Source of the DNA: Lentisphaeria bacterium
GTDB lineage: Bacteria; Verrucomicrobiota; Lentisphaeria; Victivallales; UBA1829
Length of the DNA stretch: 39,098 bases
Assembly (NCBI GenBank): GCA_019408975.1
Contig: DXVA01000005.1
Location: 1 to 39,098 of the forward strand
Direction: 5' to 3'
The position numbers and the translations under genes are program-made. Shown here piece by piece: positions 14,731-30,243 of the stretch. The number at the start of each line of letters is the position of its first letter. Within the stretch, counting starts at the first letter, position 1. The notes beneath the pieces were generated by a model, which was not told the DNA's origin, searched no databases, and was given only the letters and a program-made list of their open reading frames with translations.

Positions 14731-14768
14731 AAAAATGTGTCTGTTTGAAACCCGAAGGCTGTTTTTTC

Positions 14769-15563
14769 ATGCTGGAATACACCGAAAAACAGGATACTAG
14801 CAATTTCCTGAAAATCTATTGCTGCTGTTACGAGGAGAACATCTTCCCGTGGATTCAGGACAACTTGCAGACTCCTTCCTGGCGTTTTTACTGGAACATG
14901 GGTCCCGGAGCCTATCTTCGCTTCGACGAAAAGGAAGTGCCTCTTCTGCCGGAATATTTCTACATCATACCGGGGTATCTGCGTTTTTCCACGCTGGCAA
15001 AGGTGCCGTTCTCCCAGTTTTATATTCATTTTGACCTGAGTGAACGTCAATTGCCACAGAATGAACTGTTCCGATTGCCGGCAGAGGAAAAATCGCAGGA
15101 ACTGATCCGGCGTTTTATTCAGCGGAATGTCATCCCGGAGAACCGGCAACTGACTTGGCTAACCGCCGTTTCCATAGTCTCATCCGCACTGTTGTGTTTG
15201 GAAGAAAGTATCCTGCGTTTGCCTCCGGAATATGATCCGCGCATCGAAAGAGTTCTAACTTGGATTCATAAACATTTGAACAAAATTCACAACAACGAAT
15301 CGTTAGCGGAAATGGCAGGCATGAGTCGCAACGGCTTCCTGCGTCTTTTTGAAAATTCACTGGGCGAGGCGCCACAAAAATACTGTCGGAGAAAAAGAAT
15401 CGAACACGCCTGCGAACTGTTGCACTTCAGTGATCTGTCTCTGGAGGAAATCGCAGCGGAAACCGGATTTTCCGACCGCTATCATTTTACGAGGGTATTC
15501 TGGAAAGTGATGCACTTCACACCGGCGGCATTTCGCCGACAACTGCGCTCAGGACGAAAATGA
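14769..15563 (+). CDS. AraC/XylS-family transcriptional regulator
   Basis: The C-terminal double HTH ([41 protein letters not shown]...[31 protein letters not shown]) is canonical HTH_18. It is divergent from the pseudopilin-GH operon. Confidence 0.9.
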
Positions 15564-15607
15564 ACTGCCGATATAGAACTTAGCACGATCGAAAAAATTT
15601 TAGAAAA

Positions 15608-15639
15608 ATACCGGAATGAACAGAAATCCAATCCGGTAT
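15608..15639 (-). terminator. Weak hairpin terminator after the GH78 gene
   Basis: ATACCGGA, a 16-nt loop, then TCCGGTAT, followed on the minus strand by a T-run. It lies between convergent gene ends. The loop is long, so confidence is low. Confidence 0.3.
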
Positions 15640-15648
15640 CAGGTTCCG

Positions 15649-18186
15649 TCATAAGGCAAACACCAAGAAATGTTTGCCGCCACGATATTCCTGTGGTTTA
15701 CAGTGAGGAATACGTACCATGGCACGGCATCCGGCAGGTATCTCGAATCGGTACTCCACCAGACTTCCGTTCCGTTTCCAATGCGAGCGCACCATACCTG
15801 CGCGTGATTTATAATCCGCTTCCACATGTCCCAGTTCATTCAGGAATAATGGAGCCAACTCAAAATGGTCAAATCCGGCTGTGTCCGGCAAAACCCGGAT
15901 TCCGGCGGGATAGCGGAACAGCCAAGCACAGGGACATCCCAACATTGGGTGGTTGTGTGAATTCATACCGGTTCCGGTGGCCAGCTCCCAACGTTCCCAA
16001 AGGGTTGTGGCACCATTTGCCAGCATATATCCCCAGCCCGGATAATCCGAGGACGAAACCAACCGCCAGACTAAATTGCCATATCCATATCGTGACAACG
16101 TCTCCAACAGATACCGGGTGCCGATGTTTCCGGTCGTGTGTTTACAGGCGTTTTCCTGGAAAAGTTCCGCAAGGCGCGCAGCGGCAAGCGGCTTTTCCTC
16201 TTCAGAAAACAGATCACAGTAAACAGCATAGGCATAGGCGGACTGGCTCTCGCGCTTCAGCCGCCCGGGACCAGAACGGAATATCCGCAGAAAATCTTCC
16301 CGTATCTGTTCTCGGTTTATCAGGATGTCCGAAGTATCCTTGCCGATGATTCCGGCAATTCGTTCCAGTAGAAGCAACGCGTAATGTGCCAAAGCGGTTG
16401 CAACCAGTTCATGCGGAACTGTAAAATTACGCGGGCTGTCATGCCCGAGATTGAATTTTAGCGGAGGCACCCAATCTCCAACCCAGCCGCCTTTCCGCAG
16501 AATTCCATCGGAATCACGGCTGTTCAGAAGGCAGTCCACCCAATGACAAAAATTCGGATACCATCGTTCCAGCTGAGAACGTTTGCCGTAGAAGGCATAA
16601 TTCAGCCACGCCGATTCCAGAAAACTGGAACAGACCGGATCTATTTCAAATCCCCAGTGAAGTGGAGCTGTCATTGGAATATCGCCTGTTTCCTGATTTT
16701 GTGCTTCCGCAATATCACATAGCCATTTACTCTGAAGGTTTGATTCATCAAACAGGTAAAGGGAACTCTCACAACGCGCCATCATGTCATTAAGCCATCC
16801 CATGCGCTCCGTCCGCTGCGGACAATCAGTTGGGACAGCATGAAGATTGCTTTCTTCTGTTCGGCGGATCATCTCGAAAATCCGATTCACCAGTTCATTG
16901 TCGCAGGAGAAACTACCCGTCGGACGACAGCCGCTCCGCAACACAATTCCGGTCAAAGTATCGGATTCTGGCACTGTAGGCAGGCCGCGCACTTCGACAT
17001 AGCGGAAACCATGGTAGGTGAAATGCGGTTCGTAAACCTCATAACCAGGACTCCCTTTTGCAATGTAGACATCTACTGCATGATCACCCAACAGATTTTC
17101 CTGATTCGCAGTCCCGTCTGAATAACGAGTTTCCGAGAAGATTAGTTCCACGCGGGTACCCGCCGGGGCGTGAATTTTCAGACGACACCAACCTGCAAAG
17201 TTACGTCCGAAATCCACGCTGTAACGTCCGTTGGAAAGTGGAACAATATGAACCGGTGAAATTTCTTCCTGCGGAGCGATTGGTTCTTCTTCCAGTCCGC
17301 GTGGTTCACCGGCAAGCCCTGAAACTCGGAATGCCGCCCGTTGACACGGCAATTTGACTCCGCTGGGCAGTGTCCATGAGGAAGCAACTTCCTGCCGGGC
17401 GTCGTATTCCTCGCCGCCATAGATACTGTTGCGAAAAACAGGCGACCGCCAAGCATACGGTAGAGAGAGATAATGCGAGCGAACAAGTAACTGTCGGTCA
17501 GCCTCAATTCGGTAACAGACGACTGGAGTTCCATACCATCCCGCTCCAGCATGAACGGCAAAAACATTTTCCCCCGGCCTCAACAGTTCCGTGACATCAT
17601 AAGTCAAATAGTGCCAACTTTTGGAGTAATCGCTCTGTGCCGGTTGAAGGACAGCATTGCCCCCCAACCGGACTCCGTTGAGCCACGACTCCGACCATGC
17701 CGGACCTCCCAGATAGACGCGCGCCATCCGATATTCAGACGGAACTTCGAAATAGTGCTGAAAATAGACTGCATGTCCTGACCAGCCACCGGGAAAACCG
17801 ATCCATTGTATATCCCAATCCTTAAGAGTAAGCAGCCCGGTCTCGAAAAATGCAGAGGGACTCCAAGGGCTTTCCCTGCCGATTTCATCCCAAAGCTTTA
17901 CCTGCCAGTAAATCCGGTCACGGCTTTGAAGCGCCGGGCCACCGTAACGATGTCCGGCACAAACATGTCCCTGAATTTTGCCGGAATCCCAAAGTAGAGG
18001 AACATCAGCGGAAAATGAAGCGTCTTTCGATGCTCGAATTCTCCATGCGGACTGTTCATGTGGGACGGAATCGGGAGAGATGCACCATGAAAATTCAGGA
18101 CTTACACCATTGATTCCCAGTGGATTTGTTAAATTTTCTGTTTTCAGATCAATTGGTAGAATAGTAGATTGTTTGGTCATTTTCAA
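15649..18186 (-). CDS. Alpha-L-rhamnosidase (GH78)
   Basis: 845 aa. The N-terminus ...LKTENLTNPLGINGVSPEFSWCI and the motifs DCPQRTERMGWLND and GATTLWERWE are hallmark GH78 signatures. Confidence 0.9.
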   Translation of the reverse strand: MKMTKQSTILPIDLKTENLTNPLGINGVSPEFSWCISPDSVPHEQSAWRIRASKDASFSADVPLLWDSGKIQGHVCAGHRYGGPALQSRDRIYWQVKLWDEIGRESPWSPSAFFETGLLTLKDWDIQWIGFPGGWSGHAVYFQHYFEVPSEYRMARVYLGGPAWSESWLNGVRLGGNAVLQPAQSDYSKSWHYLTYDVTELLRPGENVFAVHAGAGWYGTPVVCYRIEADRQLLVRSHYLSLPYAWRSPVFRNSIYGGEEYDARQEVASSWTLPSGVKLPCQRAAFRVSGLAGEPRGLEEEPIAPQEEISPVHIVPLSNGRYSVDFGRNFAGWCRLKIHAPAGTRVELIFSETRYSDGTANQENLLGDHAVDVYIAKGSPGYEVYEPHFTYHGFRYVEVRGLPTVPESDTLTGIVLRSGCRPTGSFSCDNELVNRIFEMIRRTEESNLHAVPTDCPQRTERMGWLNDMMARCESSLYLFDESNLQSKWLCDIAEAQNQETGDIPMTAPLHWGFEIDPVCSSFLESAWLNYAFYGKRSQLERWYPNFCHWVDCLLNSRDSDGILRKGGWVGDWVPPLKFNLGHDSPRNFTVPHELVATALAHYALLLLERIAGIIGKDTSDILINREQIREDFLRIFRSGPGRLKRESQSAYAYAVYCDLFSEEEKPLAAARLAELFQENACKHTTGNIGTRYLLETLSRYGYGNLVWRLVSSSDYPGWGYMLANGATTLWERWELATGTGMNSHNHPMLGCPCAWLFRYPAGIRVLPDTAGFDHFELAPLFLNELGHVEADYKSRAGMVRSHWKRNGSLVEYRFEIPAGCRAMVRIPHCKPQEYRGGKHFLVFAL

Positions 18187-18189
18187 TCC

Positions 18190-19257
18190 TCATAAAGGAA
18201 ATTTTTCCTGATCCAGCATGTTCAGAATACCACGAGCGAGAATCCGGTGTCCGTAGTCATTCGGATGATTTACACCGTTTCCGGTGAGGTCAAAAAAACT
18301 CTTTCGCTCCAAAAACGCACACCAAAGTCCCGTGAGATCAACTAACGCGGTATCGTGCGGACACTTTCTGACAAACTGCCGTAAAGCTGCGGCAAAACAC
18401 TGCGTCTGCTCCGGTGGAGTGAAACTCCATTGCGGATTTCCACTCATGGGAGCAACCAGCAGATATTCCGTCATCGGCGAAACCTTTCGATTAAGCCGAA
18501 TGATCTCCGCAATATTGTTCAAATACAGTTTAACTCCCCCTGGTTCTGCCAGATCGTTCATGCCGAAAGCAATAACCAATAGATCAGGTTTGTCTTCCAG
18601 AAACATTGCAGGATGTTTCAGCGGATAACTGCTGGTAGCTCCATTGAGGCTGTAATTGTGGAAGTCAACAAGGAGCTGCTGTTGTTTCCTCAGTGTATCG
18701 ACGACCAATTCGGCAAAAGGAGGTTGAAAAGGAGGCTTTTTCAAATACCCGGAAGCGTTGTATCCTTCGGATATACTGTCTCCCAGCCAACTGATTCGGC
18801 AATGCGAACCGGGAGTATGCATCAACGCTTTGAATCGTAGCAACCGTTCATCCTGCGGGCACAGACGAAATTGAAAATTGAGCTCCGATGCCTGATAGTC
18901 AATCTCCATCTGCATCCGAGCAAAGAAATTTCCGGCATCAAAACGGATATTGCACCCATTGATGCCACCCCGAACGGCGTTGGCATCAGAGTGCGGATAA
19001 TAGCGGCAGTTTTCATCCGCTGGGTACAAAACGGTTTCATCCAGCATCGGAATGTTTGATCCTTTTGGACGGATTAATACATCACTGCCGGCAGGATGAA
19101 TCCAATCTCTGCCTTCAAGGTATTCCGTATCCAATGCGGAACAATATACGCGCCAGACGTTTTCCGCAGGAAACATCAGCCGGGCAGTATTTGTTTCGGC
19201 AAACATGCAACTTTCCCCAAAAACCTCACGGGACATCAAATTCCATAAAACTGCCAT
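18190..19257 (-). CDS. SGNH/GDSL-family hydrolase (carbohydrate esterase-like)
   Basis: Block I is WLGDSISEGY, block III is FGMNDL, and block V is NHPNDYGH. It is packed between rhaA (1-nt gap) and GH78 (3-nt gap). Confidence 0.8.
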   Translation of the reverse strand: MAVLWNLMSREVFGESCMFAETNTARLMFPAENVWRVYCSALDTEYLEGRDWIHPAGSDVLIRPKGSNIPMLDETVLYPADENCRYYPHSDANAVRGGINGCNIRFDAGNFFARMQMEIDYQASELNFQFRLCPQDERLLRFKALMHTPGSHCRISWLGDSISEGYNASGYLKKPPFQPPFAELVVDTLRKQQQLLVDFHNYSLNGATSSYPLKHPAMFLEDKPDLLVIAFGMNDLAEPGGVKLYLNNIAEIIRLNRKVSPMTEYLLVAPMSGNPQWSFTPPEQTQCFAAALRQFVRKCPHDTALVDLTGLWCAFLERKSFFDLTGNGVNHPNDYGHRILARGILNMLDQEKFPL

Positions 19258-19258
19258 C

Positions 19259-20521
19259 TTACCCCCTGCAACTCAAAACGCGGTTTTCATAACAGCGGAT
19301 CGGTTCCAAAATATGGTTATCGGACAGTACGCCGCGTGATTCGCAGTAATAATTCCAAACCGCACCCCACGGCAGAGTCTTCAGCATTTCCTGACCGGCA
19401 AGCCTTGCCGTAAAATCTCCGTTCCGCTCAGCATCGCAAATATCAGCGGAAGGTTCCAGCATGGCAATAAGCATGGCCTTCATCCAGTTTCTGGCACCGA
19501 TCACCCATGCGGCAAGCCGATTGACACTGGCGTCAAAATAATCAAGCATAAAGAAAAGATTGCTGCCGTCCCCACAACGGACTGATTCCCGCGCCAGTTC
19601 TTTCAGAGAATCATCCAGTATGATGATATGATCGCTGTCCCAGCGCACACCGCGGCTGATATGCAGCAGAATGCGTCCCTGCTGGCAGGTAATTGCAGAA
19701 AGCTTGTCTGCAATAGACTCCGTCGGATGAAAATGCCCGGTGTCTAGGCAGATTAATTTATTGTGCTTGAAAGCATATGGCAAATAGAAATCATGGGAGC
19801 CGACGGTATAGGATTCGACACCGATTCCGAAAAGCTTGGATTCAACAGCATCCAACAGTTCTGTTTGCGGGAAGATCTCCCGGAAAGTCTCATCCAATGA
19901 TTCCAAAAGAAGCCGGCGCGGTTCCAGTCTATCTGCGGGACTGTCTTTAAATCCATCAGGAACCCAAATATTACAGATGGCTGGAGTTCCAAGCCTCCTG
20001 CCAAATGCGGCACCAATCCGACGGATTGCCTTGCCGTGTTCAATCCAGAATTGGCGAATCTGTTTTTTCGGATGCGACAGAGAAAGCCCATGTTTCAAAT
20101 TTGGATGGGAATAATAGGCAGGAGCAATATCCAGTCCAAGCCGCTTTGCCTCCGCCCAATCCAGCCATTCCGCAAAGTTTTCCTCGTTGAAACTGTCACG
20201 ATCCTGACCAGGAGAAATCTTGTCGACCTCATGTCCCTGAAGTCCAACCCGAAGTTTTCGACTAGGAAGCAGTGTCAGTACCTGTTCCAGATCATCACGT
20301 AATTCCTGAGAATTCCTGGCACATCCGGGGTAATTCCCTGTAACTTGGCAGCCGCCAGTCAAGGCATGTCCAAACCTCTCAAAGCCTTTGACATCATCTC
20401 CCTGCCAAGCGTGAATGCTCAAAGGAATTTTCTCCAGACGACTCATGACAGATTCAGGATCAACCCCATATTTTAGATAAATTTCCTTTGCTGCCACATA
20501 AGCTTTTTCAATTTGATTCAT
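19259..20521 (-). CDS. rhaA: L-rhamnose isomerase
   Basis: 420 aa, collinear with E. coli RhaA as I recall it. Shared strings include HAWQGDDVKGFE, TGNYPGCARN, DAVESKLFGIGVESYTVGS, LDTGHFHPTE, VRWDSDHII, DYFDASVNRLAAWVIGARN and the C-terminal ...LSCRG. Confidence 0.95.
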   Translation of the reverse strand: MNQIEKAYVAAKEIYLKYGVDPESVMSRLEKIPLSIHAWQGDDVKGFERFGHALTGGCQVTGNYPGCARNSQELRDDLEQVLTLLPSRKLRVGLQGHEVDKISPGQDRDSFNEENFAEWLDWAEAKRLGLDIAPAYYSHPNLKHGLSLSHPKKQIRQFWIEHGKAIRRIGAAFGRRLGTPAICNIWVPDGFKDSPADRLEPRRLLLESLDETFREIFPQTELLDAVESKLFGIGVESYTVGSHDFYLPYAFKHNKLICLDTGHFHPTESIADKLSAITCQQGRILLHISRGVRWDSDHIIILDDSLKELARESVRCGDGSNLFFMLDYFDASVNRLAAWVIGARNWMKAMLIAMLEPSADICDAERNGDFTARLAGQEMLKTLPWGAVWNYYCESRGVLSDNHILEPIRCYENRVLSCRG

Positions 20522-20592: not shown

Positions 20593-20796
20593 TGCTTGAA
20601 AATTGATATTTGATGAACGTTTGTAATATCTATGATTGGTTTCGTTTGAAAAATTGACCATTGGATAACTCATGTGTGTATCAGAATAAAACATCATAAA
20701 ATCCTCTTCTCCAATGTAATCCATTCCAATTTCACGTATATATAACCCCGTGACAGCAGGCTGAAGAGATCGGTCTGAATTTTATCAAACGGCTTT

Positions 20797-20816
20797 TCCG
20801 ATCCTTCGGGATCGGA
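20797..20816. promoter_or_regulatory. Perfect 8-4-8 palindrome TCCGATCC-TTCG-GGATCGGA in the leader of the mobile-element operon
   Basis: Read directly from the sequence. It lies 37 bp upstream of the clamp-like gene start. No adjacent T-run follows, so it is not a canonical terminator. It could be an operator or an RNA hairpin with a UUCG loop. Confidence 0.35.
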
Positions 20817-20852
20817 GGGGCTTGTTATTTTTCAACATCACGGAGGTTGTGT

Positions 20853-22211
20853 ATGAAACTTGAAGTGAACAGAAATGAGTTGGCTGGCGCTTTGATCGCG
20901 CTGGGGAAACTGGTTTGCCGGACAGCGGCGGAAGCGGAATTCAAAGCACTGCGGATTGAGGCGGGAGAGAATCGAGTCCGCTTCTCGACCTGCTCGCAGT
21001 CGGAGCAGATCACGTTCAAAACGGAGTGCCGGTCGGAGGGCGCATTTCACTGCATCGTGGGATTCGATGAGTTCCGGGACGCGGTGCGCAGCGGCAGGAA
21101 CAAGACGCTTGAGATCGAAGACGACGAAGGAACTCTGCGAGTCGGGGAAAGAACTTTGTTTCCGATGTCCGGCGTGGAATGGCGGGTTCCCGGTAAGGTT
21201 GAACATTGCTCTGTCAGCGAGCTGCCCAAAAACTTTGTCTCTCTGCTGTCGGAGGCGGCACAGCTCGTAGACAGAAACGAGCCGAGAAGGATCATGCGGG
21301 GGATCAACCTCAGCCGGGAGGGGATCACCACGACCAACGGCAGGGAACTACTGAACATCTACATTCCGCTGAATGTGGATGACTTCACGATACCACTTCC
21401 GCTGGCTCTGATGCAGACCAAGACAACGGAATCCGGCAAGCTCTATACGTGGAGTGATAACCTCGGCAAAAGCTGTCGTATCGACACGGAACACTGGACG
21501 TGGTATGCAAAAGGTTTGCTCGGCAACTATCCGAACTGGAAACAGATCATCCCGGCGCAGAATACGCTGGTTCGCTCGGTATCGTTCCTGCCGGAACGTG
21601 GTCAGCAACTTGAAATTTTCCTCAAGAACGTCCCCGATCAGCCGCCACACAATGCCGTGGAGCTGTATCAGAGCGATCCGGGATATTTGAACGTTCTCGC
21701 GGGAGAGATGCACACCAGCATAGCCGCCGAGTTTACGGGCGACTGGAACGATGTTTCGCTCATGCTCAACAAGCACATGCTTCTTCGTCTGTTGTCGGAG
21801 GGGCATACGAAAATTGAGATGGCAGACAACCATATCCCGATTCTCGCAAGTGGAGGCACGGGACGCTATATCACGATGCCGCTGTATCAGCCGAAATCCA
21901 AAATAACAACTCAAAATCAAACTCAAAATCAACCCCAAACGGAGGAATCCAAAATGGAAACAAACGAAATGAGAGTCGTGTCTGTCCCTGTGCAGACTGC
22001 CGCCCCGAAACAGGAAATCGAAGCCAACCCGATGGAAGAACTGAACAGTGCTATTGAATCGTTCCGCCTGAAACTGCGGATTGCATGGGATGAATCGAAT
22101 CTTCTGAGCCGCAAAGTCAAGGAAGTTCAGCTTGCCCAGAAGCAGAAAGAACGGGACTTCATTCAGGCGAAACGTGCCATCGAGCGTATCCGCATGGTCA
22201 GTGGATTCTGA
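20853..22211 (+). CDS. DNA polymerase III beta sliding-clamp homologue (DnaN-like) with C-terminal low-complexity linker and coiled-coil tail
   Basis: GGAGG lies 6 nt before ATG 20853. MKLEVNRNELAGAL... has the DnaN N-terminal pattern. GNYPNWKQIIPA matches the clamp (F/Y)P.Y...IP motif, and GGTGRYITMPL matches the clamp C-terminal ..Y.(I/V)MP(M/L) motif. About 90 extra C-terminal residues are Q/N-rich and then heptad-like. Confidence 0.7.
   Translation: MKLEVNRNELAGALIALGKLVCRTAAEAEFKALRIEAGENRVRFSTCSQSEQITFKTECRSEGAFHCIVGFDEFRDAVRSGRNKTLEIEDDEGTLRVGERTLFPMSGVEWRVPGKVEHCSVSELPKNFVSLLSEAAQLVDRNEPRRIMRGINLSREGITTTNGRELLNIYIPLNVDDFTIPLPLALMQTKTTESGKLYTWSDNLGKSCRIDTEHWTWYAKGLLGNYPNWKQIIPAQNTLVRSVSFLPERGQQLEIFLKNVPDQPPHNAVELYQSDPGYLNVLAGEMHTSIAAEFTGDWNDVSLMLNKHMLLRLLSEGHTKIEMADNHIPILASGGTGRYITMPLYQPKSKITTQNQTQNQPQTEESKMETNEMRVVSVPVQTAAPKQEIEANPMEELNSAIESFRLKLRIAWDESNLLSRKVKEVQLAQKQKERDFIQAKRAIERIRMVSGF
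21909..21932 (+). repeat. 2 x 12-bp tandem repeat ACTCAAAATCAA inside the clamp-like gene (encodes TQNQTQNQ)
   Basis: Read directly from the sequence. It forms the low-complexity linker. Confidence 0.9.
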
Positions 22212-22234
22212 TTCAAAAAAACAAACAGAAACAT

Positions 22235-22278
22235 GGGTCTCCGGCAGGTGTTGAACCTGTCCGGAGACTCAATTTTTT
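22235..22278 (+). terminator. Intra-operon rho-independent terminator/attenuator after the clamp-like gene
   Basis: GGGTCTCCGGCAGG, a 7-nt loop, then CCTGTCCGGAGACTC with one bulge, followed by AATTTTTT. The next gene's RBS (CAGGAG) follows immediately. Confidence 0.6.
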
Positions 22279-22291
22279 CAGGAGATTTATC

Positions 22292-22738
22292 ATGTTGAAA
22301 TTGAATGCATCTTACAGTAAGAAAGTTCCGGCGGACACGGAGTATTCCAGCCAGAGCTACCACGCCTCCATTGAGGTGGAAATCCCGGACGGTCTGACAG
22401 CGGAACAGCTTCAGAGCCGCATCCATGAGACCTTTGATCTTGTGCGGAACAGCGTCGAAACGGAACTGCATGGCGGTAATTGTACGACTGTACAGCAAAG
22501 ACCGCAATCCCCGCAGAGTTATTCCGGAGGCAAGGGCAGTTACGGCAAGGGGAAAGGCAGTCAGAGTCCCGATGGTCCCGCGTCTCCGAAACAGATCAAA
22601 TATCTGCTTGACCTCGCAAGGGACGCCCGTGTCACGCCTCAGCAGATCGCGGCAAGGTTCCGGGTGAATACCGTAGAGGAGCTGTCGCGCAATCAGTGCA
22701 GTCTGGCGATCAACGAGTTCAACGGAAAGGCGGCGTGA
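22292..22738 (+). CDS. Hypothetical protein (148 aa) with Gly/Ser/Lys-rich linker and helical C-terminal ASPKQIKYLLDLA module
   Basis: An AGGAG-like RBS lies upstream. The stop is 1 nt before the start of the next gene (TGAAATG). I cannot assign a family. The S/T-x-KQI-x-YL motif recurs in phage/plasmid DNA-metabolism accessory proteins as far as I recall. Confidence 0.6.
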   Translation: MLKLNASYSKKVPADTEYSSQSYHASIEVEIPDGLTAEQLQSRIHETFDLVRNSVETELHGGNCTTVQQRPQSPQSYSGGKGSYGKGKGSQSPDGPASPKQIKYLLDLARDARVTPQQIAARFRVNTVEELSRNQCSLAINEFNGKAA

Positions 22739-22739
22739 A

Positions 22740-23525
22740 ATGAATCTGAATGAGTTGCGCAAAGAACCGCACTGGTCGTATTCGGCGTTCCATTGCTACC
22801 TGACATGCCCGCTGAAATTCAAGTTCCAGTATGTCGAACATGTAGAGCCGGAGCACACGTGCAGTTGCTTTCCGTTCGGGCGTGCCTTCCATGCGGCGTT
22901 GAGTCAGCGTGCAAGGAGTGGTCCGCAGATGAAGATTGCAGATGTCAAGGAGCTGTTCGAGGCGTATTTCAAGGCGGAAATCAATGCCGTGGAGCATCTC
23001 GTCTACAAGCCGAAAGAGGATTACGGGTCTCTGCTGCAAACGGGATTTGACATGCTCACTGTCTGCCTCGAAAACTGGCAGGATGACTTTGCGGTCAGGA
23101 GCGTGGAGGAAGGGTTTTCCGTGGAGATTCCGGGGCTGTCGAAGCCGCTGATCGGGGAGTATGACATGCTTGTGGAGGACGGCGGTCATGAGTGCATTGT
23201 CGATTGGAAAACAGCAAGCGCGAAATGGTCTCCGGGCAAGGCGCATCAGGACTTGCAGGCAACAGTATTTTGTTACGCCCGTACAAAACAGACCGGCAGG
23301 AGTCCGCTGTTCCGGTTCGATATCGTGACGAAGACCAGAACGCCATGTGTGGAGTCGCACTATACCGAGCGCAGAGAGCAGGACTTTCAACGCTTTGAAC
23401 TGCTGGCGCAGACCATTGAATCGGCGATGCAGAGGGATGTGTTCTATCCGAACGAGACCTGCTTCTCGTGTTCCGACTGCCAGTTCAAAACCAAGTGCCG
23501 TTTGTGGCACGTAAGAAAGGGGTGA
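22740..23525 (+). CDS. PD-(D/E)XK nuclease, Cas4/RecB-exonuclease-like with Fe-S cysteine cluster
   Basis: One N-terminal Cys (YLTCPLKF) plus the C-terminal CSDCQFKTKC (CxxCx5C) gives the Cas4/AddB-type four-Cys arrangement. The core is GEYDMLVEDGGHECIVDWKT, matching D...(D/E)xK. Confidence 0.8.
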   Translation: MNLNELRKEPHWSYSAFHCYLTCPLKFKFQYVEHVEPEHTCSCFPFGRAFHAALSQRARSGPQMKIADVKELFEAYFKAEINAVEHLVYKPKEDYGSLLQTGFDMLTVCLENWQDDFAVRSVEEGFSVEIPGLSKPLIGEYDMLVEDGGHECIVDWKTASAKWSPGKAHQDLQATVFCYARTKQTGRSPLFRFDIVTKTRTPCVESHYTERREQDFQRFELLAQTIESAMQRDVFYPNETCFSCSDCQFKTKCRLWHVRKG

Positions 23526-23529
23526 GACG

Positions 23530-24267
23530 ATGAGCAATCTTTGCATGGGCGGCGGTGGTCACTACGCCACACGGGAAGAAGTGGCACTGGTTCCAACGCC
23601 GGAAGCAACTTCGAGCTGGAAGCCGGTTCCACATTATGAGGTCATTGAGGCGGTAACGGAGGTGGTGCAGGCGCATCAGTGGGTGATTCTGGAAGAACAG
23701 TTCGGCTTGGCACGTGAGGGTGCGAAGCTGTTCGGCGTGATGAAGATCAACAGGAGTTCTTCGCTGGAATGGTGCCGCTGCATCGGCATCCGCAATTCCC
23801 ACGACAAGAGTTTTTCCGTGGGGTTGACAGCCGGGATTACGGTCATCTGCTGCTCGAATATGGCATTCGGCGGAAGCATGGTTCTGAAGCGCCGCCATAC
23901 CTCGCGGATTGAGCTGTGCGATCTGGTTGACAAAGCCGTCGATGAACTCGAAAATGAGTTCCTGATACTGGAGAATGTAGCAGAGGATCTGAAAGTGGCG
24001 TATCTGGACAATGACGACGAAGCCAGAAGCCGAATCGTCAGAGCCGCAGAACTCGGTGCAATCAACAGCTCGGATATTGTACCGGTGTACAAAGAATTCA
24101 AGACTCCCTCTCACGAGGAGTTCCTGGAGCCGACAAGATGGAGCCTGCTGAATGCGTTCACGGAGACGGTCAAGAAATACACCCCGCAACGGGTGGACGT
24201 CTCCTATGCCGCATTGAACCGCTGCTTCGGGCTGGACGGAAGAATACCGTTGTTATGGGAAAAGTAA
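23530..24267 (+). CDS. DUF932 domain protein (phage/plasmid-associated)
   Basis: IGIRNSHDKSFSVGLTAGITVICCSNMAFGGSMVLKRRHT matches the conserved RNSHD...C.N....G...(R/K)H core of DUF932 as I recall it. Confidence 0.7.
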   Translation: MSNLCMGGGGHYATREEVALVPTPEATSSWKPVPHYEVIEAVTEVVQAHQWVILEEQFGLAREGAKLFGVMKINRSSSLEWCRCIGIRNSHDKSFSVGLTAGITVICCSNMAFGGSMVLKRRHTSRIELCDLVDKAVDELENEFLILENVAEDLKVAYLDNDDEARSRIVRAAELGAINSSDIVPVYKEFKTPSHEEFLEPTRWSLLNAFTETVKKYTPQRVDVSYAALNRCFGLDGRIPLLWEK

Positions 24268-24382
24268 TCGCGGGTATTCACCCCATGGTACGCCCTCTGC
24301 CGGAAGTGGTGCAAACGGCAGAGTATTCATGCACTCCGGCGGCTTCGGTCGCCGGTTTTCTATTCAAAACAGAAAGGAAAAA

Positions 24383-24697
24383 ATGATGGTGAAAATCTTT
24401 TGTCCGCACTGTTCCACCCCTGCCAATCCCGTACATTGCGCCCGCAATTTCGGAACCGCAGTCGGAATTGTTGCGGGAGGAACAAGTGTAGTTTCCGGTA
24501 TGATTCAGGGAGCCTGTGTCGGAAGCACTTTCGGTCCGGCAGGAATTGCAATCGGAGCTGCTGCAGGATCGCTTTTGCGTATTCTCTTCGGAGTTTCTTC
24601 CGGAGGTCTGCTCGGAGCGCAGGTCGGAAGACTGATCGACGAGAACCTGATCGGATTCTATCGCTGTCCGAAATGTCATGCAATTTTCAAGGCATAG
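24383..24697 (+). CDS. Small membrane protein: split zinc ribbon (CPHC...CPKC) enclosing a glycine-zipper hydrophobic segment
   Basis: 104 aa with the RBS AAGGAAAAA before ATG 24383. CxxC sits at residues 7-10 and 94-97. Between them lies GTAVGIVAGGTSVVSGMIQGACVGSTFGPAGIAIGAAAGSLL...GGLLGAQVG, which contains repeated GxxxG/A. Confidence 0.6.
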   Translation: MMVKIFCPHCSTPANPVHCARNFGTAVGIVAGGTSVVSGMIQGACVGSTFGPAGIAIGAAAGSLLRILFGVSSGGLLGAQVGRLIDENLIGFYRCPKCHAIFKA

Positions 24698-24705
24698 GAG
24701 AAACT

Positions 24706-24855
24706 ATGATGGATGAAATTCATTGTCCGGACTGCGGTTCTATTCGCTGTATTCCATGGGATGACGGATGGCTCTGCCGTTGTTGCGGCACGGAGTTTGA
24801 TGTGCCGGAACCTGAAGAAGATTTTTCGGAATCAGAAACGAATATGAAAGATTAG
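24706..24855 (+). CDS. Small zinc-ribbon protein with acidic tail (49 aa)
   Basis: AGGAG lies 6 nt before ATG 24706. The ribbon is CPDCGS...CRCCG, followed by the tail EPEEDFSESE. The gene is followed by a strong terminator. Confidence 0.55.
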   Translation: MMDEIHCPDCGSIRCIPWDDGWLCRCCGTEFDVPEPEEDFSESETNMKD

Positions 24856-24865
24856 AATTACACTC

Positions 24866-24900
24866 AAAAAGTATCCGGAGATTGCCCGGATACTTTTTTT
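24866..24900. terminator. Bidirectional rho-independent terminator
   Basis: AAAAAGTATCCGG, a 7-nt loop, then CCGGATACTTTTTTT. It sits between convergent gene ends at 24855 and 24917. Confidence 0.85.
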
Positions 24901-24916
24901 ATCTGACGCCATCCAT

Positions 24917-25585
24917 TCAAATCAAATGGTCTTCCCTGAAAATAGATTTATGGAACGGTAGTTCCGTAAGTTTGATCAGCTTCCGGAATTGTTCCCCGGT
25001 GCGTATCCGGTCTTTTAATTTCGTGAGGATATTGAGACGGCGCCAATCTTCTTCGCTGAACAGATCAAGACAGGGACATTCCGACAGCAGTTCGGCAGAG
25101 CTGTGAAGGAGGCTCCACCACATCGGTTTCGTAAACTTCTCCTTGAAAGGACATTGGAACCAATGGCGCGGATTATGCTTGATGATCCAGAACCAGTCGC
25201 CAAGAGTGAAATCATGCGTGTCGATATCCCTTTCGTGACACCAGTCGCTTGCCAGCAATCCGCTTCTTACAGCCGGGTGATTCGGGATCTCACAGTAATG
25301 AAGCAAAGTCGGCTGGTGCCGTAACAGGCGTTGCCACTGATACGGGGTGAAATCCTGCCAGCAGGGACATCGCCATGCAAGCGGAAGTTGTCCGGATAAG
25401 GCTGTCACCCAGTCGTCCGGGGTGAACTCGGAAAACGGGCAGAGCTCCTGCAGTTCCGGATGCCGTGAAATAATACGTGCCCATTGTTTCGGTGACAAAG
25501 GAGCGGATACGGATTCTGTTTCTGCTGCAAAGGCGGCACAGTTCCATTCAAGATCAAGGAATGTGTTCAGTTCTGTTTCGGTCAT
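24917..25585 (-). CDS. Hypothetical Trp/Cys-rich tandem-repeat protein (~222 aa)
   Basis: About 6-7 repeats of roughly 25 aa with the pattern F(T/S)xxxWxxLLxxxPxLxxxCP, for example FTPDDWVTALSGQLPLAWRCP, FTPYQWQRLLRHQPTLLHYCE, FTLGDWFWIIKHNPRHWFQCP and FTKPMWWSLLHSSAELLSECP. The start is either 25585 (MTETE) or 25597. Confidence 0.6.
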   Translation of the reverse strand: MTETELNTFLDLEWNCAAFAAETESVSAPLSPKQWARIISRHPELQELCPFSEFTPDDWVTALSGQLPLAWRCPCWQDFTPYQWQRLLRHQPTLLHYCEIPNHPAVRSGLLASDWCHERDIDTHDFTLGDWFWIIKHNPRHWFQCPFKEKFTKPMWWSLLHSSAELLSECPCLDLFSEEDWRRLNILTKLKDRIRTGEQFRKLIKLTELPFHKSIFREDHLI

Positions 25586-25786
25586 GGTGCACCTCATGTT
25601 TTTGTGTTGTGGATTTTGTGACAGGAGGATGCCTGTCATAATATTGTTGTGCGAAAATAAAACTGATTGCAGAGGTATCCGGCTGGTGCGGCTTCCCGCA
25701 CACAAGCCGGAATCATCAAATTATCATCATTCGGACTCCGCCGGACTCTCATATCATAGTAGACACACTGTATTTTTTTACCGGAC

Positions 25787-26398
25787 TTATTCCTTCGGGA
25801 TCTGCGTAAAACCAAACATCCGGCATCCCTCCGGAGTCTTTTCCTTTTCATTGACTTTCGCGGCATAACTCATCCAGTGAGAAGCATTATGCAGTTGCGT
25901 TTCCGCATCCGCCCCATGACGGCGAATCCGTATGCCGGTATTGTGGTCCGCCTGTTCCTGCGGAGGGCAATACCGCACATAATTGGAATCAGGGGATGTT
26001 CCGATTTCACGGGACCAGACATCATTGAAAAATCCAGCGATCTTCTGGACATGCTGAACCTTGTTGCCGTCACAAACCGGATAGCAGTGATAATGAGGAT
26101 GTTCGGAATCACGTTGTTCTCGTGCCCAGACAAGCTGGGCATCGATCCCCTCCCGCTTCAACCTCATCCGGCATTTGCGTATCGCATTGGAAATATGCCG
26201 GTTATCATTCTGTGTTTCCATTTCAGGAGGAAAACGGAATTCCAGATGCCCTACAAATACCTGGCTATGCTTATCCGTCATGTACCGTAACCGTTTCTGA
26301 ATTTCATTCACTGCCTCCCGATACACGGGATGCTCCGGATCGGCATTCACGGATAAATGGTTCAAGTGGCTTTCCATGTGGTGGTGTCTTTTCGGCAT
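25787..26398 (-). CDS. YagK/YfjJ-domain (inovirus Gp2-type) protein, putative island replication/DNA-processing protein
   Basis: HLEFRFP...QLVWAREQRDSEHPHYHCYPVCDGNK matches the W.RE......HYH....(N/D)G signature of this family. AAGGAG lies upstream of ATG 26398, although the ORF stays open to 26470. Homologues sit beside alpA and int in E. coli CP4-57/CP4-6. Confidence 0.7.
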   Translation of the reverse strand: MPKRHHHMESHLNHLSVNADPEHPVYREAVNEIQKRLRYMTDKHSQVFVGHLEFRFPPEMETQNDNRHISNAIRKCRMRLKREGIDAQLVWAREQRDSEHPHYHCYPVCDGNKVQHVQKIAGFFNDVWSREIGTSPDSNYVRYCPPQEQADHNTGIRIRRHGADAETQLHNASHWMSYAAKVNEKEKTPEGCRMFGFTQIPKE

Positions 26399-26583
26399 GA
26401 TTTTCTCTGCTCCTTTTCTGAATGATTTTATGTATGCCATGATTGATTTCTGTTCTGTAATTATTCTCATTCGGAATTCGAATAATCATTAGAAATCAAT
26501 TTCCGTATCTTATTTTCGGGCTTATTCTGTGCTTCCTGTTCCCTGTTCATCGTTTATTATGGCTGCTGTTTAGGCTTATGGCT

Positions 26584-26651
26584 TTATAGCTTCCTGATAA
26601 CTTTATAGCTTTTATAACTCTTATAGCTTACTCTAATAGCTCTTATAGCTT
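26584..26651. repeat. Iteron-like array: 4 exact TTATAGCTT copies plus degenerate copies
   Basis: Exact 9-mers start at 26584, 26603, 26621 and 26643. Degenerate copies are TTATAACT (26613), TAATAGCT (26634) and GCTTATGGCTT (26574). Spacing is about 9-11 bp or multiples of that. The array lies in the divergent region between the YagK-like and AlpA-like genes. Confidence 0.8.
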
Positions 26652-26847
26652 AGCTTTAGCTATTTCTAATAACCGAGTTGTGCCTGATCGAATTTTGCCT
26701 GCATTTCCATAACTTTTTGAAACATGAGTTGCCGTAATGCTGAATGAGGCTGTTTTTACACTTAGGTCCCGCATAAAATAACAGGAACTCAAAAGTAAAA
26801 AAGATTCATGACCCGCGATCGTATGCGCTCAAAGGAGGGGCGTATAC

Positions 26848-27174
26848 ATGAATGAAATCAGAATTTCAATGAATACCGTCCGTTTCTTCAAACGGATCAT
26901 GCGTCCGGTCGCAGAAGAAGGAATTATTTCACTGCCGGAATACAACGAGGCAATCTCTCAATTGACCAGCCTTGCGGAACATGGTGTTCCCAAAGCTGTG
27001 GTCACTCCGAAACTTCTGGATCAGCGTGAGGTCGCGGAGATGCTCAACATCAGCCACAGCAATTTCAAAAAACTCGAAGCCGAGGGTGCTTTCCCATTCA
27101 AAAGGAAAATGGTAGGCTCAGCAGTGCGATACCGCAATACCGATGTTCTGAATTACATCAGTTCCTGTGACTGA
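26848..27174 (+). CDS. AlpA/excisionase-type (MerR-superfamily HTH) DNA-binding protein
   Basis: The C-terminal half, LLDQREVAEMLNISHSNFKKLEAEGAFPFKRKMVGSAVRYRNTDVLNYI, fits the HTH_17/AlpA pattern. GGAGG lies upstream of the ATG. The position between a YagK-like gene and int matches CP4-57-type islands. Confidence 0.7.
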   Translation: MNEIRISMNTVRFFKRIMRPVAEEGIISLPEYNEAISQLTSLAEHGVPKAVVTPKLLDQREVAEMLNISHSNFKKLEAEGAFPFKRKMVGSAVRYRNTDVLNYISSCD

Positions 27175-28550
27175 TCTTTCCATTGCTGAATTCCGCGTTT
27201 TCGGTAATGCCTGTGTTTTTTATAGACACGAATATTCCATAATGCCATATATTTACGTAGCGTTGGAACAGAAATAGGCTTTGGCATGATGACACGTGTA
27301 TTAATGTCCTTTACTATCTGGGAAATATCCTGTCCCTGTTGGACTCGTGTCCAGACAAAGTCCCGGAGATGCGCAGAATGAAGCATCTTGATTCGATACG
27401 TCCAATAAATCGCTTCCTTATGGCATGTATACCGGTATGTACACATGTCTCTGGAAGCAGATTTTGAGGCAATACAATCCCGGAAACACAGGTCCAGTTC
27501 CGATGATTTTCCTTTACGCCAGTAGTCCGCTTCATAAGCCATTTCAAATAGTGAGCATGGCATTTTTTCTTTGGCAATAATACAGACAAAGTAACCAGCC
27601 TCCGCCAAATTTTTCAGCATTTGCTTTAGGAGTTGCTTTTCTGCTTTTTTATATTCAAATCCATCCAGAAAGATATTTTTCGGCAATCCGGGAATCGACA
27701 AAATACATTCCAAATTTGATTTTCCTGTTTCGTTCAGCTGCCAAGGAGCGGATTTGTTCCCCAGCAGACATGAAAAGAAATTTTTCCCATTTCTTATTAT
27801 TCCATAATCCAGTTCTTTGCGGAGATCATCAAAAGCGAGATTTAGGTGCAGAAGCTTTATTTGCTGATGAAAGTTCCAGCAATCCTGTTCATTTGTAATA
27901 TTTTTGAAGTATACAACATCCTTATTTTGATTAAAACGCCATGGAATTCCCCCTTTTATGCCGGTCGGCAAAATATTTCCCTGTTCCTCACAGGCACGTT
28001 GTATTTGATTGATTCCATACCAGTCACGATGTTGACTACTGTCAGCGATATAGGCCGCAATAGACAATCCCCAGGCGGTAAGATTTCCATTTCCCCAGAA
28101 AACTGCATTTTTAACTTTTCCAAGCGTTTGGCTGCCTATCGCTTTTTTCCCCTCCCAGTTGTCAAGAATAAAATGACTGCTGGGAACCAGTTTGTTAAAA
28201 TCCATTGAAGTATGGCACGGCTCTTGGTGTGTGGCATTTTGGGGGACTGGTGAGATGAGCGGCATAGGTATATCTTGATTGGAGGATGAGTCAGAACTGG
28301 AAGAATTATCGGGCAGCATGTTTGGAAGATTAGCATTTGCAGATGGGGAGATATCTTGAGAAAATACAGATGAGGCTTGTGAACAATTATTGCTATAACT
28401 AGATGGTAGATTTCCATTATTTACTGGTTCTGATTCCATACTTTTATCCTTCATTTTTTTTGATTTCATTATTTCTTTTGCATAAATATATAAGTATAAT
28501 AAAATCATATCTAATATAATTAATATAGCAAATAAAAATTCATAAATCAA
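27153..28550 (-). CDS. Hypothetical protein, AT-rich orphan (up to 465 aa), possible N-terminal TM helix and Ser-rich linker
   Basis: Long ORF in the most AT-rich part of the window. I recognise no motif. Alternative starts lie at 28469, 28454 and 28439. Its 3' end overlaps the convergent AlpA-like gene by 22 nt. Confidence 0.55.
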   Translation of the reverse strand: MIYEFLFAILIILDMILLYLYIYAKEIMKSKKMKDKSMESEPVNNGNLPSSYSNNCSQASSVFSQDISPSANANLPNMLPDNSSSSDSSSNQDIPMPLISPVPQNATHQEPCHTSMDFNKLVPSSHFILDNWEGKKAIGSQTLGKVKNAVFWGNGNLTAWGLSIAAYIADSSQHRDWYGINQIQRACEEQGNILPTGIKGGIPWRFNQNKDVVYFKNITNEQDCWNFHQQIKLLHLNLAFDDLRKELDYGIIRNGKNFFSCLLGNKSAPWQLNETGKSNLECILSIPGLPKNIFLDGFEYKKAEKQLLKQMLKNLAEAGYFVCIIAKEKMPCSLFEMAYEADYWRKGKSSELDLCFRDCIASKSASRDMCTYRYTCHKEAIYWTYRIKMLHSAHLRDFVWTRVQQGQDISQIVKDINTRVIMPKPISVPTLRKYMALWNIRVYKKHRHYRKRGIQQWKDQSQELM

Positions 28551-28665
28551 GTATAATTTTTATTTTTTAATAGAGATAATAATAAATTCCATTTTTGCAT
28601 AAATAATATTTTTAATAAAGCATATTCTTATTTTCTTTTTCTATAGAAAAATATTTATTCATATA

Positions 28666-28720
28666 GTGCATTTTATATTTTTATAAATGCACAGAGACAT
28701 TACTATCCTGTGCATTTGCA
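28666..28720. promoter_or_regulatory. Palindromic GTGCATTT elements between the integrase stop and the orphan gene start
   Basis: GTGCATTTTATA-TTT-TTATAAATGCAC (28666-28692) is a near-perfect 27-bp palindrome. A third GTGCATTTGCA lies at 28710-28720. These could form an operator or a weak int terminator. Confidence 0.4.
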
Positions 28721-28734
28721 AGGAAGCATATTAA

Positions 28735-30030
28735 TCAATCTTTTAATATTTTAATAAGACTTTGCACTTCTTGTGTATCTGGAAGATTTTGCAGATATTG
28801 CAAAGCTTTTTCGATCCGTGCCCTGTCGGATGGTCCTGCGGTTCCGCTGACGGCTTTTATCGCCTTGAGCTGGGCATCTTCCCCGACGTGCGTATAAAAC
28901 TGATCAATGATGTCGCTGTTCGCACCGAGGATCGAAACCACCACTGCTTTCGGAACACCCGCCTCCGCGCAGAACGAGGCAAAACTGTGGCGCAGACTGT
29001 GGAACCCATAGACAACCATCTTTCTTTTTCTGCCGGGAACTTCGACGTTGGTTTCCATTCCGGCACGTTTGATGACGCGCATCACGTCGATATTGACAAA
29101 ATTATCGCCTACGGATTTTCCCTTTGCGTCTACCGTCAAATAACGTTTTGCCACATTGGGAGAGACATAGGAGTCAATGCGCCATTCTTTTGCCTGCTCC
29201 AGTGCGCGGACAAGCGGTTCTGCGATGGGAATAGATACCTGTTTCCCGGTTTTAAACTGTTTCACCCAAATCCGGCGATGCATCAAATCCACATGATCCC
29301 ATTGCAGGAGAACGCAGTCTTTCAGCCGCTGTCCGGTATACATCCCGATCAGATAAATGACTTTCAGCTCTTTTTTATTCATGACTTTGAAACTCGGATC
29401 GTCCAGAACCTTGAGAATTGCTTCTTCCTGTTCTTTGGTGAATGCGAGACGGCGCACCGTGTTTCCTTGTTCTTCCCGTGGTTTTCTGCGCAGATTCTGG
29501 GATGCAAACGGGTTGTCTTCGGAATAATAATCCGAGAGTGTGGTAAAGATTTTTCTGAGACGGAGAATTTTCCGATTATGTGTGGATACTGAAATCGCTG
29601 TCGTCTTGAGATAAGCCGCATATTGGTCTGCGATACCTGGTGTAATTGCCGCCACCTGTGTTTCTTCCCCGACGTAACGTATGAATTCCGTAAAGGTTGT
29701 TTCGTAGGAAATTTCTTCATGACGTGTCGCGGGAAATGCCCTGTCCGGATGTTCCGCATAAATTTTCCAGGCGTCTTTCAGAGCAAGCGGGCGGCTTTTT
29801 CTTGCGAGATTGCGTGCCACTTTGACATGTGCGGAGATCACTTCTGCTGTTGTTGCCTGAACGATGGGCAGAAGTTCTTTTGCTTTTTTCAGAGCTTCTT
29901 CCTGATTCTGCGTTTTCAGACTGACACATTTTCGTTCATGATTGACCTGATAGCGGAAATAATAAGTTCCGCCTTCTTCCTTCTGATAAACAGTTCCGGT
30001 TTCCAGTTTGATCTTGTTTTTCTTTCCCAT
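28735..30030 (-). CDS. int: Tyrosine-type site-specific recombinase (integrase)
   Basis: 431 aa with catalytic-domain signatures GQRLKD (Arg), HSLRHSF (His-x-x-Arg) and the QFYTHV region (Tyr). It lies about 110 bp from the 3' end of tRNA-Lys. Confidence 0.9.
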   Translation of the reverse strand: MGKKNKIKLETGTVYQKEEGGTYYFRYQVNHERKCVSLKTQNQEEALKKAKELLPIVQATTAEVISAHVKVARNLARKSRPLALKDAWKIYAEHPDRAFPATRHEEISYETTFTEFIRYVGEETQVAAITPGIADQYAAYLKTTAISVSTHNRKILRLRKIFTTLSDYYSEDNPFASQNLRRKPREEQGNTVRRLAFTKEQEEAILKVLDDPSFKVMNKKELKVIYLIGMYTGQRLKDCVLLQWDHVDLMHRRIWVKQFKTGKQVSIPIAEPLVRALEQAKEWRIDSYVSPNVAKRYLTVDAKGKSVGDNFVNIDVMRVIKRAGMETNVEVPGRKRKMVVYGFHSLRHSFASFCAEAGVPKAVVVSILGANSDIIDQFYTHVGEDAQLKAIKAVSGTAGPSDRARIEKALQYLQNLPDTQEVQSLIKILKD

Positions 30031-30137
30031 TTCATCCTCCGGCGATGAAAAATCCTGTTTTGGCTAAAATAATACGGAAAAAAGAGAAAGAAAGCTCTGA
30101 ATGGTAATAAACGGTAACTTTTCTTTAGAAATGAGGC

Positions 30138-30159
30138 TAAAATGGTGCGCCCACAAGGA
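30138..30159. repeat. Proximal att-type direct repeat (tRNA-Lys 3' end plus 5 nt)
   Basis: Identical to 4426-4447. Positions 30143-30159 are the last 17 nt of the tRNA, including the CCA. Confidence 0.9.
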
Positions 30160-30218: not shown

Positions 30219-30243
30219 ATCTCTTATTTCATAGAATGCATTT

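Follow-up and report, generated by a model that had tools for sequence, protein, structure and literature searches.

What are a sliding-clamp homolog, a Cas4-like nuclease and a protein of the family DUF932 doing side by side on a bacterial chromosome, in a neighborhood with no gene for conjugation or virion formation? We address this question for a 39,098-nucleotide stretch of DNA from a Lentisphaeria bacterium (contig DXVA01000005.1 of GenBank assembly GCA_019408975.1; the whole stretch is hereafter called the window), in which six plus-strand open reading frames (ORFs), named g1 to g6 here, lie at positions 20853-24855. The original prediction, made from the letters of the window alone, placed six ORFs at this position and read them as a coherent, uncharacterized DNA-transaction module that neither conjugation nor packaging explains. 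All six ORFs are present and the core of that claim stands, but the unit consists of four genes, g1-g4, and not of six. This four-gene set is strictly conserved yet unstudied. The reading we favor, to which we give roughly an even chance, is that g1-g4 form a DNA replication or recombination module of tRNA-integrating, non-conjugative, non-viral, CP4-57-like islands of Victivallales and related Verrucomicrobiota. The four genes (lengths in amino acids, aa) are as follows.

20853-22211, plus strand: g1, divergent beta sliding clamp of 452 aa, with a body (aa 1-345), a linker (aa 346-392) and a C-terminal helix (aa 393-452; nt 22029-22208).
22292-22738, plus strand: g2, two-domain protein of 148 aa, with an N-terminal domain of a beta-hairpin and a helix (aa 1-60), a disordered linker and a C-terminal three-helix domain resembling a helix-turn-helix (HTH; aa 97-148).
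22740-23525, plus strand: g3, Cas4/RecB-like PD-(D/E)XK nuclease of 261 aa with a four-cysteine Fe-S site (PDDEXK_1, E 2.6e-24; phrog_1218/69, 'exonuclease').
23530-24267, plus strand: g4, DUF932 protein of 245 aa (PF06067, E 3.8e-10, 40.4 bits against a cut-off of 23).

The families of g1, g3 and g4 had been assigned from short motifs, and all three assignments hold under profile searches. For g1, whether the protein stays inside the clamp fold had been set beforehand as a test. Single-sequence searches with g1 returned nothing from Pfam at E ≤0.1 and a best PDB match of E 0.11, and profiles alone gave a clear answer: a family profile of 20 sequences matched 50-odd beta clamps in the PDB (best 4trt, E 1e-15, residues 1-344 aligned to 2-357), and hhalign of g1 against the DnaN of the host gave a probability of 98.6% over 330 columns, a homology that spans the three clamp domains. 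Among the PHROGs, g1 matched phrog_947, 'DNA polymerase processivity factor' (E 6.8e-12). On the equivalog model TIGR00663 it reached 27.5 bits against a cut-off of 137.65; the host retains its own dnaN (contig C223), which scores 287.5 bits on the same model. By these comparisons g1 is a full-length homolog of DnaN and not a DnaN equivalog. The two proteins also have the pocket motifs in common, the segments GNYPNWKQIIP and YITMPL of g1 aligning at the sequence level with GNYPNYKQVIP and YVIMPM of the host protein, and since g1 keeps these partner-pocket motifs we infer that it would be able to engage host DNA polymerase III (Pol III).

DnaN lacks the extension of ~105 aa that g1 carries, in which a linker rich in Q, T and P, variable within the family (~25-65 aa), is followed by a conserved C-terminal helix of ~55 aa. 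Mean pairwise identity across the family is 42% in the body and 60% in this tail. Phages encode clamp homologs as well (PHROG 947), such as gp35 of mycobacteriophage Adephagia (PMC11373665); g1 is homologous to them, but its gene lies on an island, next to those of a nuclease and a DUF932 protein. Searches of 2.9 million viral contigs, and by tblastn of 50,697 phage records and 72,556 plasmids, turned up no relatives of the g1 clamp, and the elements that carry this clamp family are not recognizable viruses or plasmids.

The g3 nuclease scored 87 bits on PDDEXK_1 against a cut-off of 22. Residues C23, C244, C247, C253, D142, D155-x-K157, Q173 and Y179 are invariant in 18 family members, and with its catalytic and cysteine residues kept in this way g3 looks catalytically competent and looks to have an Fe-S site. 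It has the same PD-(D/E)XK fold and four-cysteine cluster site as CRISPR-associated Cas4, and gives weak matches to Cas4 models, but falls below threshold on the Cas4 equivalog model TIGR00372 (24.8 bits against a cut-off of 65) and lacks cas or CRISPR context: the window showed no cas genes and the island no CRISPR array. It is better called a stand-alone RecB/Cas4-like exonuclease.

The AlphaFold2 model of g4 was confident (predicted local distance difference test score, pLDDT, 85; predicted template-modeling score, pTM, 0.79). Foldseek searches of the PDB with this model gave no match at E ≤0.001, the best being TolC (E 0.09, template-modeling (TM) score 0.11), and searches of BFVD matched only phage proteins of DUF932, DUF945 and TIGR03299 (TM scores 0.6-0.78, E down to 2e-16). 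The two domains of g2 were modeled at pLDDT 72-84, with a weak whole-chain pTM of 0.31 owing to the disordered linker; its N-terminal domain has a mean pairwise identity of 83% in the family alignment. For g2, Pfam gave weak HTH matches only, and Foldseek against the PDB gave non-significant HTH matches only. None of 19 members of the g2 family matched GemA in Pfam. Neither g2 nor the DUF932 protein matched an annealing-protein fold significantly, the best match being the 80-alpha Sak structure at E 0.46-0.66. By eye, we found no convincing canonical clamp-binding motif of the QL[SD]LF type in g2, g3 or g4.

The co-occurrence of these families beyond the source genome, on which the idea of a module depends, was borne out in relatives. 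A scan of species genomes seeded with DUF932, which amounts to a census within the order and not across phyla, returned 80 loci, all from Victivallales/Lentisphaeria except two tiny contigs binned as Clostridia; one of the loci comes from a metagenome-assembled genome of Victivallis vadensis, a species that thus has related elements. The nuclease gene lay directly upstream of DUF932 in 62 of the 63 loci with room for it. The whole core was found in 44 of the 47 loci with 3.3 kb of upstream sequence (within 3.8 kb in 41, and with the clamp ~3.9 kb upstream in 3). Hand inspection of 20 relatives with sufficient room found the order clamp-g2-nuclease-DUF932 in every one (20/20), down to 35% clamp identity; across module-retaining relatives the identity of the clamp is about 35-94%. 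The two contigs binned as Clostridia (L085, from a Faecousia metagenome-assembled genome, 1.8 kb; L098, from a Clostridia one, 2.1 kb) carry DUF932 genes 71-73% identical to that of the window; mis-binning is the most likely reason for their placement in the Firmicutes, with cross-phylum transfer a less probable one.

The clamp family extends well beyond these loci. It is patchy and multi-copy in 60 relatives, with up to 5 copies in a genome. At a clamp-profile E ≤1e-30 a representative library held 157 clusters (50% identity), and metagenomes held more than 1,191 matching proteins at E ≤0.001, the best 120 of which are close relatives. In a sample of the phylum, 51 of 301 genomes had a match at E ≤1e-15, the few weakest of which are probably host DnaN. 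'Tail-only' clamp ORFs were considered as variants and set aside; most are artefacts of truncation at contig ends, L198 is a decayed remnant, and only L201 looks real.

Among seven loci inspected in other classes, five hold at least one further core family, in gene orders other than that of the window: g2, nuclease, clamp and DUF932 in L140, for example, and nuclease, DUF932 and clamp in L144. The remaining two, L142 and L143, have the clamp alone, and the contig of L142 stops right after it. We regard this re-association after rearrangement as the strongest argument that the four families may work together, since their co-localization in differing gene orders favors a functional linkage.

These genes belong to an integrated island of 25,712 bp (4448-30159, counting one copy of the attachment (att) core) in the genome of a gut Victivallales host. 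Its borders are defined by the following features.

4426-4447, no strand: left att core, a 22-bp direct repeat of the 3' end of tRNA-Lys plus 5 nt, matching 30138-30159 exactly.
28735-30030, minus strand: tyrosine integrase (Phage_integrase, Pfam, E 2.6e-21), adjoining tRNA-Lys.
30138-30218, minus strand: right att core and tRNA-Lys(CTT); the core (30138-30159) overlaps the 3' end of the tRNA (30143-30218, ARAGORN).

A congener (contig C84 of genome G003) contains, as an exact 50-mer, the empty site predicted by joining left flank, core and tRNA; this fixes the ends of the island and its length. The window thus has a tyrosine integrase beside a tRNA, att direct repeats and an exact empty site in a congener, as an integrative island should. 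In the assembly of this congener, the 130 nt of G003:C84:1-130 are identical to G003:C93:64707-64836; they are the left flank of the insertion site, standing at the end of one contig and the start of another. This branch of the assembly graph falls exactly at the att site; the site may be polymorphic there, with occupied and empty versions side by side in the population.

A second congener, G004, carries a copy of the island that matches positions 4427-6322 (96.8%) and 20853-30219 (96.5%) of the window, and the g2, g3 and g4 proteins of the two copies are 100% identical. At dnaN-recF the host genomes themselves (G000 for the window, and G004) share no more than 79% identity, and from this difference between island arms and chromosome we conclude that the island has moved recently between species. 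Sequence comparison indicates that such islands pass between gut and rumen Victivallales species.

Between the borders, the rest of the island comprises a backbone and one block of exchangeable cargo.

4907-6400, minus strand: 497-aa protein without a family match, in the conserved left arm.
6444-20521, minus strand: variable cargo (Pfam: solute symporter, two GH78-type rhamnosidases, CBM9/GH42-like protein, pseudopilin-like protein, SGNH esterase, RhaA).
25787-26470, minus strand: YagK/YfjJ-type HUH protein (gpII/Rep-like; PF11726, E 3.8e-8; PF23343, E 1.1e-5), a candidate replication initiator.
26584-26652, no strand: array of short, iteron-like direct repeats between yagK and alpA, with a 22-nt tandem pair at 26609-26652; a candidate origin.
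26848-27174, plus strand: AlpA/excisionase-like HTH protein (HTH_17, E 2.6e-5, and Phage_AlpA, E 3.7e-3, both below cut-off; phrog_66 and phrog_2790, 'excisionase').

The operon is the first conserved backbone block beside the swappable cargo slot. Between the conserved arms of the G004 copy this slot holds a glycosyltransferase cluster (four GT2 genes; L033 2236-9173) and not the rhamnosidase, RhaA and symporter genes of the window, and in the metagenomic relative L004 (6603-9588) it holds the M and S genes of a type I restriction-modification system. The islands thus ferry metabolic (glycan-utilization), surface-glycan (glycosyltransferase) and defense (restriction-modification) cargo.

The YagK protein scored 33.9 bits on YagK_YfjJ_C against a cut-off of 25.8; among its relatives an S-Y-x-A-K motif is invariant, and an H-x-H-Y-H motif is kept in most of those aligned and degenerate in one. 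These motifs resemble those of HUH rolling-circle initiators, and YagK with the adjoining repeat array may be the initiator and origin of the island. The AlpA-like protein reached a Pfam score of 17.5 against a cut-off of 21, with support from the PHROG excisionase families. The backbone proteins at 24917-25705 (262 aa), 27153-28550 (465 aa) and 4907-6400 (497 aa) had no match in Pfam or PADLOC, and the 262- and 465-aa proteins had none in PHROGs or NCBIfam either. In agreement with the original prediction, Pfam searches of the large ORFs of the island, three of which are proteins without a family, found no relaxase, coupling protein, type IV secretion system (T4SS), terminase or capsid gene. 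Since YagK is an HUH protein, 'no relaxase' is true in a strict sense only: the role of YagK could be that of a replication initiator or of a relaxase-like nickase, in principle nicking an oriT.

Within the operon, the gaps between the middle genes are as small as had been described (1 nt between g2 and g3, 4 nt between g3 and g4). The description of all six genes as one tightly coupled operon did not hold, as spacers with hairpins, of 80 nt between g1 and g2 and of 115 nt between g4 and g5, interrupt the series. The RNA elements and the two remaining genes are as follows.

20713-20852, plus strand: conserved non-coding leader; it contains an AT-rich stretch resembling a promoter and two hairpins, one small (20757-20777), the other strong (20791-20822) and trailed by a U-run.
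22234-22271, plus strand: hairpin and U-run between g1 and g2 (-30 kcal/mol, z -5.7).
24336-24355, plus strand: terminator-like GC hairpin with a T-rich tail, followed by TTTTCTATTC, in the g4/g5 spacer, splitting the core from g5-g6.
24383-24697, plus strand: g5, split zinc-ribbon protein with a Gly-rich hydrophobic middle, 104 aa from an ATG preceded by a Shine-Dalgarno sequence; weak zinc-ribbon Pfam matches only.
24706-24855, plus strand: g6, zinc-ribbon mini-protein of 49 aa with an acidic tail, an ORF read from the sequence.
24866-24900, plus strand: intrinsic terminator, a hairpin (24866-24898) and U-run (-17.3 kcal/mol, z -4.6).

The last of these is the strong terminator that had been predicted to end the operon; being flanked by A and U runs, it is potentially bidirectional. 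The g5 gene was found in 1 of the 80 related loci, and is diverged already in the 96.5%-identical G004 copy, and g6 was found in 15 of the 80; g5 and g6 are a variable accessory pair behind a terminator-like hairpin, outside the four-gene core. The hairpin at 22234-22271 is possibly an attenuator or partial terminator. Upstream, the strong leader hairpin (-24 kcal/mol, z -5.6) ends 30 nt before the start codon of the clamp gene. The 140-nt leader is 88-91% identical in G049, G003, G070 and one metagenome, compared with ~76% DNA identity in their clamp gene region. The G004 copy has a different leader, and its similarity to the window begins exactly at the clamp ATG. The leader could be an attenuator, an antitermination leader or a small RNA; operon and leader had no match in Rfam.

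DUF932 is a widespread mobile-element family, occurring in E. coli K-12 (yfjQ), in integrative and conjugative elements (ICEs) and in many phages, and to our knowledge it has no known function. Our tblastn search with DUF932 returned only 6 phage and 2 plasmid records, and the plasmid context was uninformative. In Salinibacter phage M8CRM-1, the DUF932 gene lies directly upstream of a block coding for an endonuclease/recombinase, a single-stranded DNA-binding protein (SSB) and ERF. Among 58 proteins encoded near DUF932 at 14 viral loci, Pfam identified GP88 (8), small terminase (5) and T7-type RNA polymerase (3), and isolated instances of DUF2800, YqaJ, PDDEXK_1, an Enc34 ssDNA-binding protein, RadC and helicases; the PD-(D/E)XK-type nucleases among these (DUF2800, YqaJ, PDDEXK_1) account for 3 of the 58. 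GP88, the commonest viral neighbor (loci L152-L187), is likewise a family of unknown function. Viral DUF932 genes thus sit among early or DNA-metabolism genes, sometimes beside an exonuclease.

The original prediction had offered replication, recombination, anti-defense and defense as possible functions of the operon. We favor replication or recombination over defense because the module has a fixed position in the backbone, beside cargo that is swapped, and is deeply conserved, with several copies resident in the same genome. Under this reading, the integrase and AlpA would excise the island and the YagK-type HUH protein would nick the repeat-bearing origin. The host clamp loader would then put the island clamp at the 3'-OH, where the clamp would engage host Pol III, while its flexible linker and C-terminal helix would tether g2, the nuclease and the DUF932 protein to DNA. 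The Fe-S RecB/Cas4-type exonuclease would resect ends or displaced strands, leading to circle closure, strand annealing or recombination-primed replication, with the DUF932 protein and the g2 HTH protein as its DNA-handling partners; g5 and g6 would stand outside this proposed machine. The mechanism of the module and every physical step in it are inferred. That the four proteins form a single clamp-anchored machine, in which the tethered helix carries the exonuclease, the DUF932 protein and the small DNA-binding protein along DNA, we regard as doubtful.

Several observations count against the replication or recombination reading. That the clamp tail tethers partners is no more than conjecture on our part. 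The DUF932 protein and the N-terminal domain of g2 match no characterized fold, and no single-strand annealing protein, SSB, primase, helicase or polymerase was recognized in the island. An exact 42-mer of the attP junction expected of an excised circle had no match in metagenome contigs of the Joint Genome Institute (JGI). Finally, locus L201 (G271:C20, 4476-10888) has yagK, a 101-aa tail-only ORF (profile positions 363-446), an ORF like the C-terminal domain of g2, g2, DUF932 and an integrase, but lacks both the nuclease and the body of the clamp, so that these two may be dispensable, unless the copy is decaying.

The alternative that survives best, unlikely as we consider it, is that the genes serve establishment or anti-defense when the island enters a new cell, protecting or processing incoming DNA or subverting the host as leading-region genes of plasmids and ICEs do. 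The clamp might then compete for the clamp-binding proteins of the host or serve as a decoy for them, and the nuclease might degrade DNA of the host or of rivals. The yfjQ gene of CP4-57 shares a co-oriented accessory block with the antirestriction gene lfgA and a RadC-like protease, and RadC lies near DUF932 in one viral locus. The clamp body also evolves faster (42% against 59-83% mean identity), which could reflect an arms race or host tracking, and overexpressed phage clamps are toxic to their hosts (PMC11373665). However, searches with Pfam, PHROGs and NCBIfam found none of ArdA, ArdB, KlcA, ArdC, SSB or other known anti-defense families in the island, and a nuclease with its catalytic residues in place and a complete clamp that keeps its pocket motifs have the look of functional DNA-metabolism proteins, not of inhibitors. 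Nor can a 'leading region' be delimited in the island.

It is also rather unlikely that the four are separate backbone genes inherited together with no joint machine, the clamp serving replication, the nuclease recombination or repair, and DUF932 and g2 the control of activation. The shuffled order in other classes is what this explanation would lead one to expect, together with loci in which no DUF932 (L139, L141) or no g2 (L144) was detected, the hairpins that set g1 apart from g2-g4, and the missing clamp body and nuclease of L201. It is at odds with the 1- and 4-nt spacing of g2-g4, which are contiguous in nearly every locus, and with the re-association of the four families after rearrangement.

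Quite unlikely, in our judgment, is a fixed immunity core for defense or exclusion, in which the clamp would guide the Fe-S nuclease in attacking the replicating DNA of phages or rival islands, and DUF932 and g2 would serve as sensor or adaptor. Cas4-like and PD-(D/E)XK nucleases are common defense effectors, and cargo adjacent to the operon in relatives includes type I restriction-modification genes (L004) and a C5-methylase with an SNF2 helicase (L140). On an integrated plasmid of Variovorax, a DUF932 gene was repeatedly mutated after phage exposure, with high-frequency mutations that included loss of the start codon, and the authors propose a defense role (10.1101/2025.06.20.660599), which is the only hint of function in the literature that we searched; such mutations would fit the loss of a function that the phage exploits at least equally well, and the start-codon loss suits the loss of a function needed by the phage better than it suits a defense gene. 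We set the defense explanation aside because the module lies in the invariant backbone while the true cargo is swapped beside it, because retention across ~35-94% clamp identity and across classes typifies life-cycle genes, because up to 5 related copies coexist in a genome, which argues against strong mutual exclusion, and because PADLOC 2.0 gave only generic Cas4 models (best E 3.4e-8) and a weak DruK match (E 6.8e-4) for g3 and nothing for nine other proteins.

In line with the original prediction, the module matched no established system with a name: PADLOC, Pfam, NCBIfam and PHROGs were negative in this respect, and the literature searched on DUF932, YfjQ, TIGR03299/PF06067, islands with a clamp and a Cas4-like nuclease, and Victivallales mobile elements gave no account of the four genes. 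DUF932 is locked here to an exonuclease that is intact by sequence in its catalytic residues, to a DNA-binding-like protein and to a private clamp, which yields a concrete, testable hypothesis on its role. Should the four proteins indeed act as one clamp-anchored machine, this would be an undescribed route of copying or re-insertion for islands without conjugation, virion or polymerase genes, and would give DUF932, including yfjQ of E. coli, a first biochemical role. These islands are abundant and mobile without recognizable transfer machinery, and an understanding of their replication and spread would account for gene flow in a gut lineage that has received little study.

How does the island compare with systems already described? 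It does not look like an ICE or integrative mobilizable element, as the relaxase, coupling protein and T4SS that mark these were not found by Pfam. Nor does it look like a satellite phage such as P4 proper, whose alpha primase-helicase and psu, delta and sid genes had no counterpart in the island by Pfam and PHROG searches (three ORFs are without a family). The modules of exonuclease and annealing protein (lambda Exo/Beta, RecE/RecT, and Cas4-like nucleases with Erf or Sak) likewise couple a RecB/Cas4-family exonuclease to small DNA-handling partners, and phage DUF932 adjoins such a module (endonuclease, SSB, ERF). The island differs from them in having no RecT, Erf, Sak or Rad52-type protein or SSB recognized by Pfam or PHROG, and we know of no module of this kind that includes a clamp.

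The closest described architecture is that of CP4-57 of E. coli K-12, with the order intA, yfjH, alpA, yfjI, yfjJ, defense cargo (abpAB, rnlAB), yfjP and yfjQ (DUF932). CP4-57 has YfjI (DUF3987), antirestriction, RadC-like and toxin-antitoxin genes that the island lacks, whereas the island has a clamp, a g2-like protein and a Cas4/RecB-like nuclease beside DUF932, all three absent from CP4-57; the similarity between their proteins is at the family level only. CP4-57, and with it islands of the CP4-6 type and P4-like integrase islands, shares with our island a tyrosine integrase at a small-RNA gene. Neither CP4-57 nor the island has virion or conjugation genes, and both combine an AlpA-type regulator, a YagK/YfjJ HUH protein and a DUF932 protein with a slot for swappable cargo.

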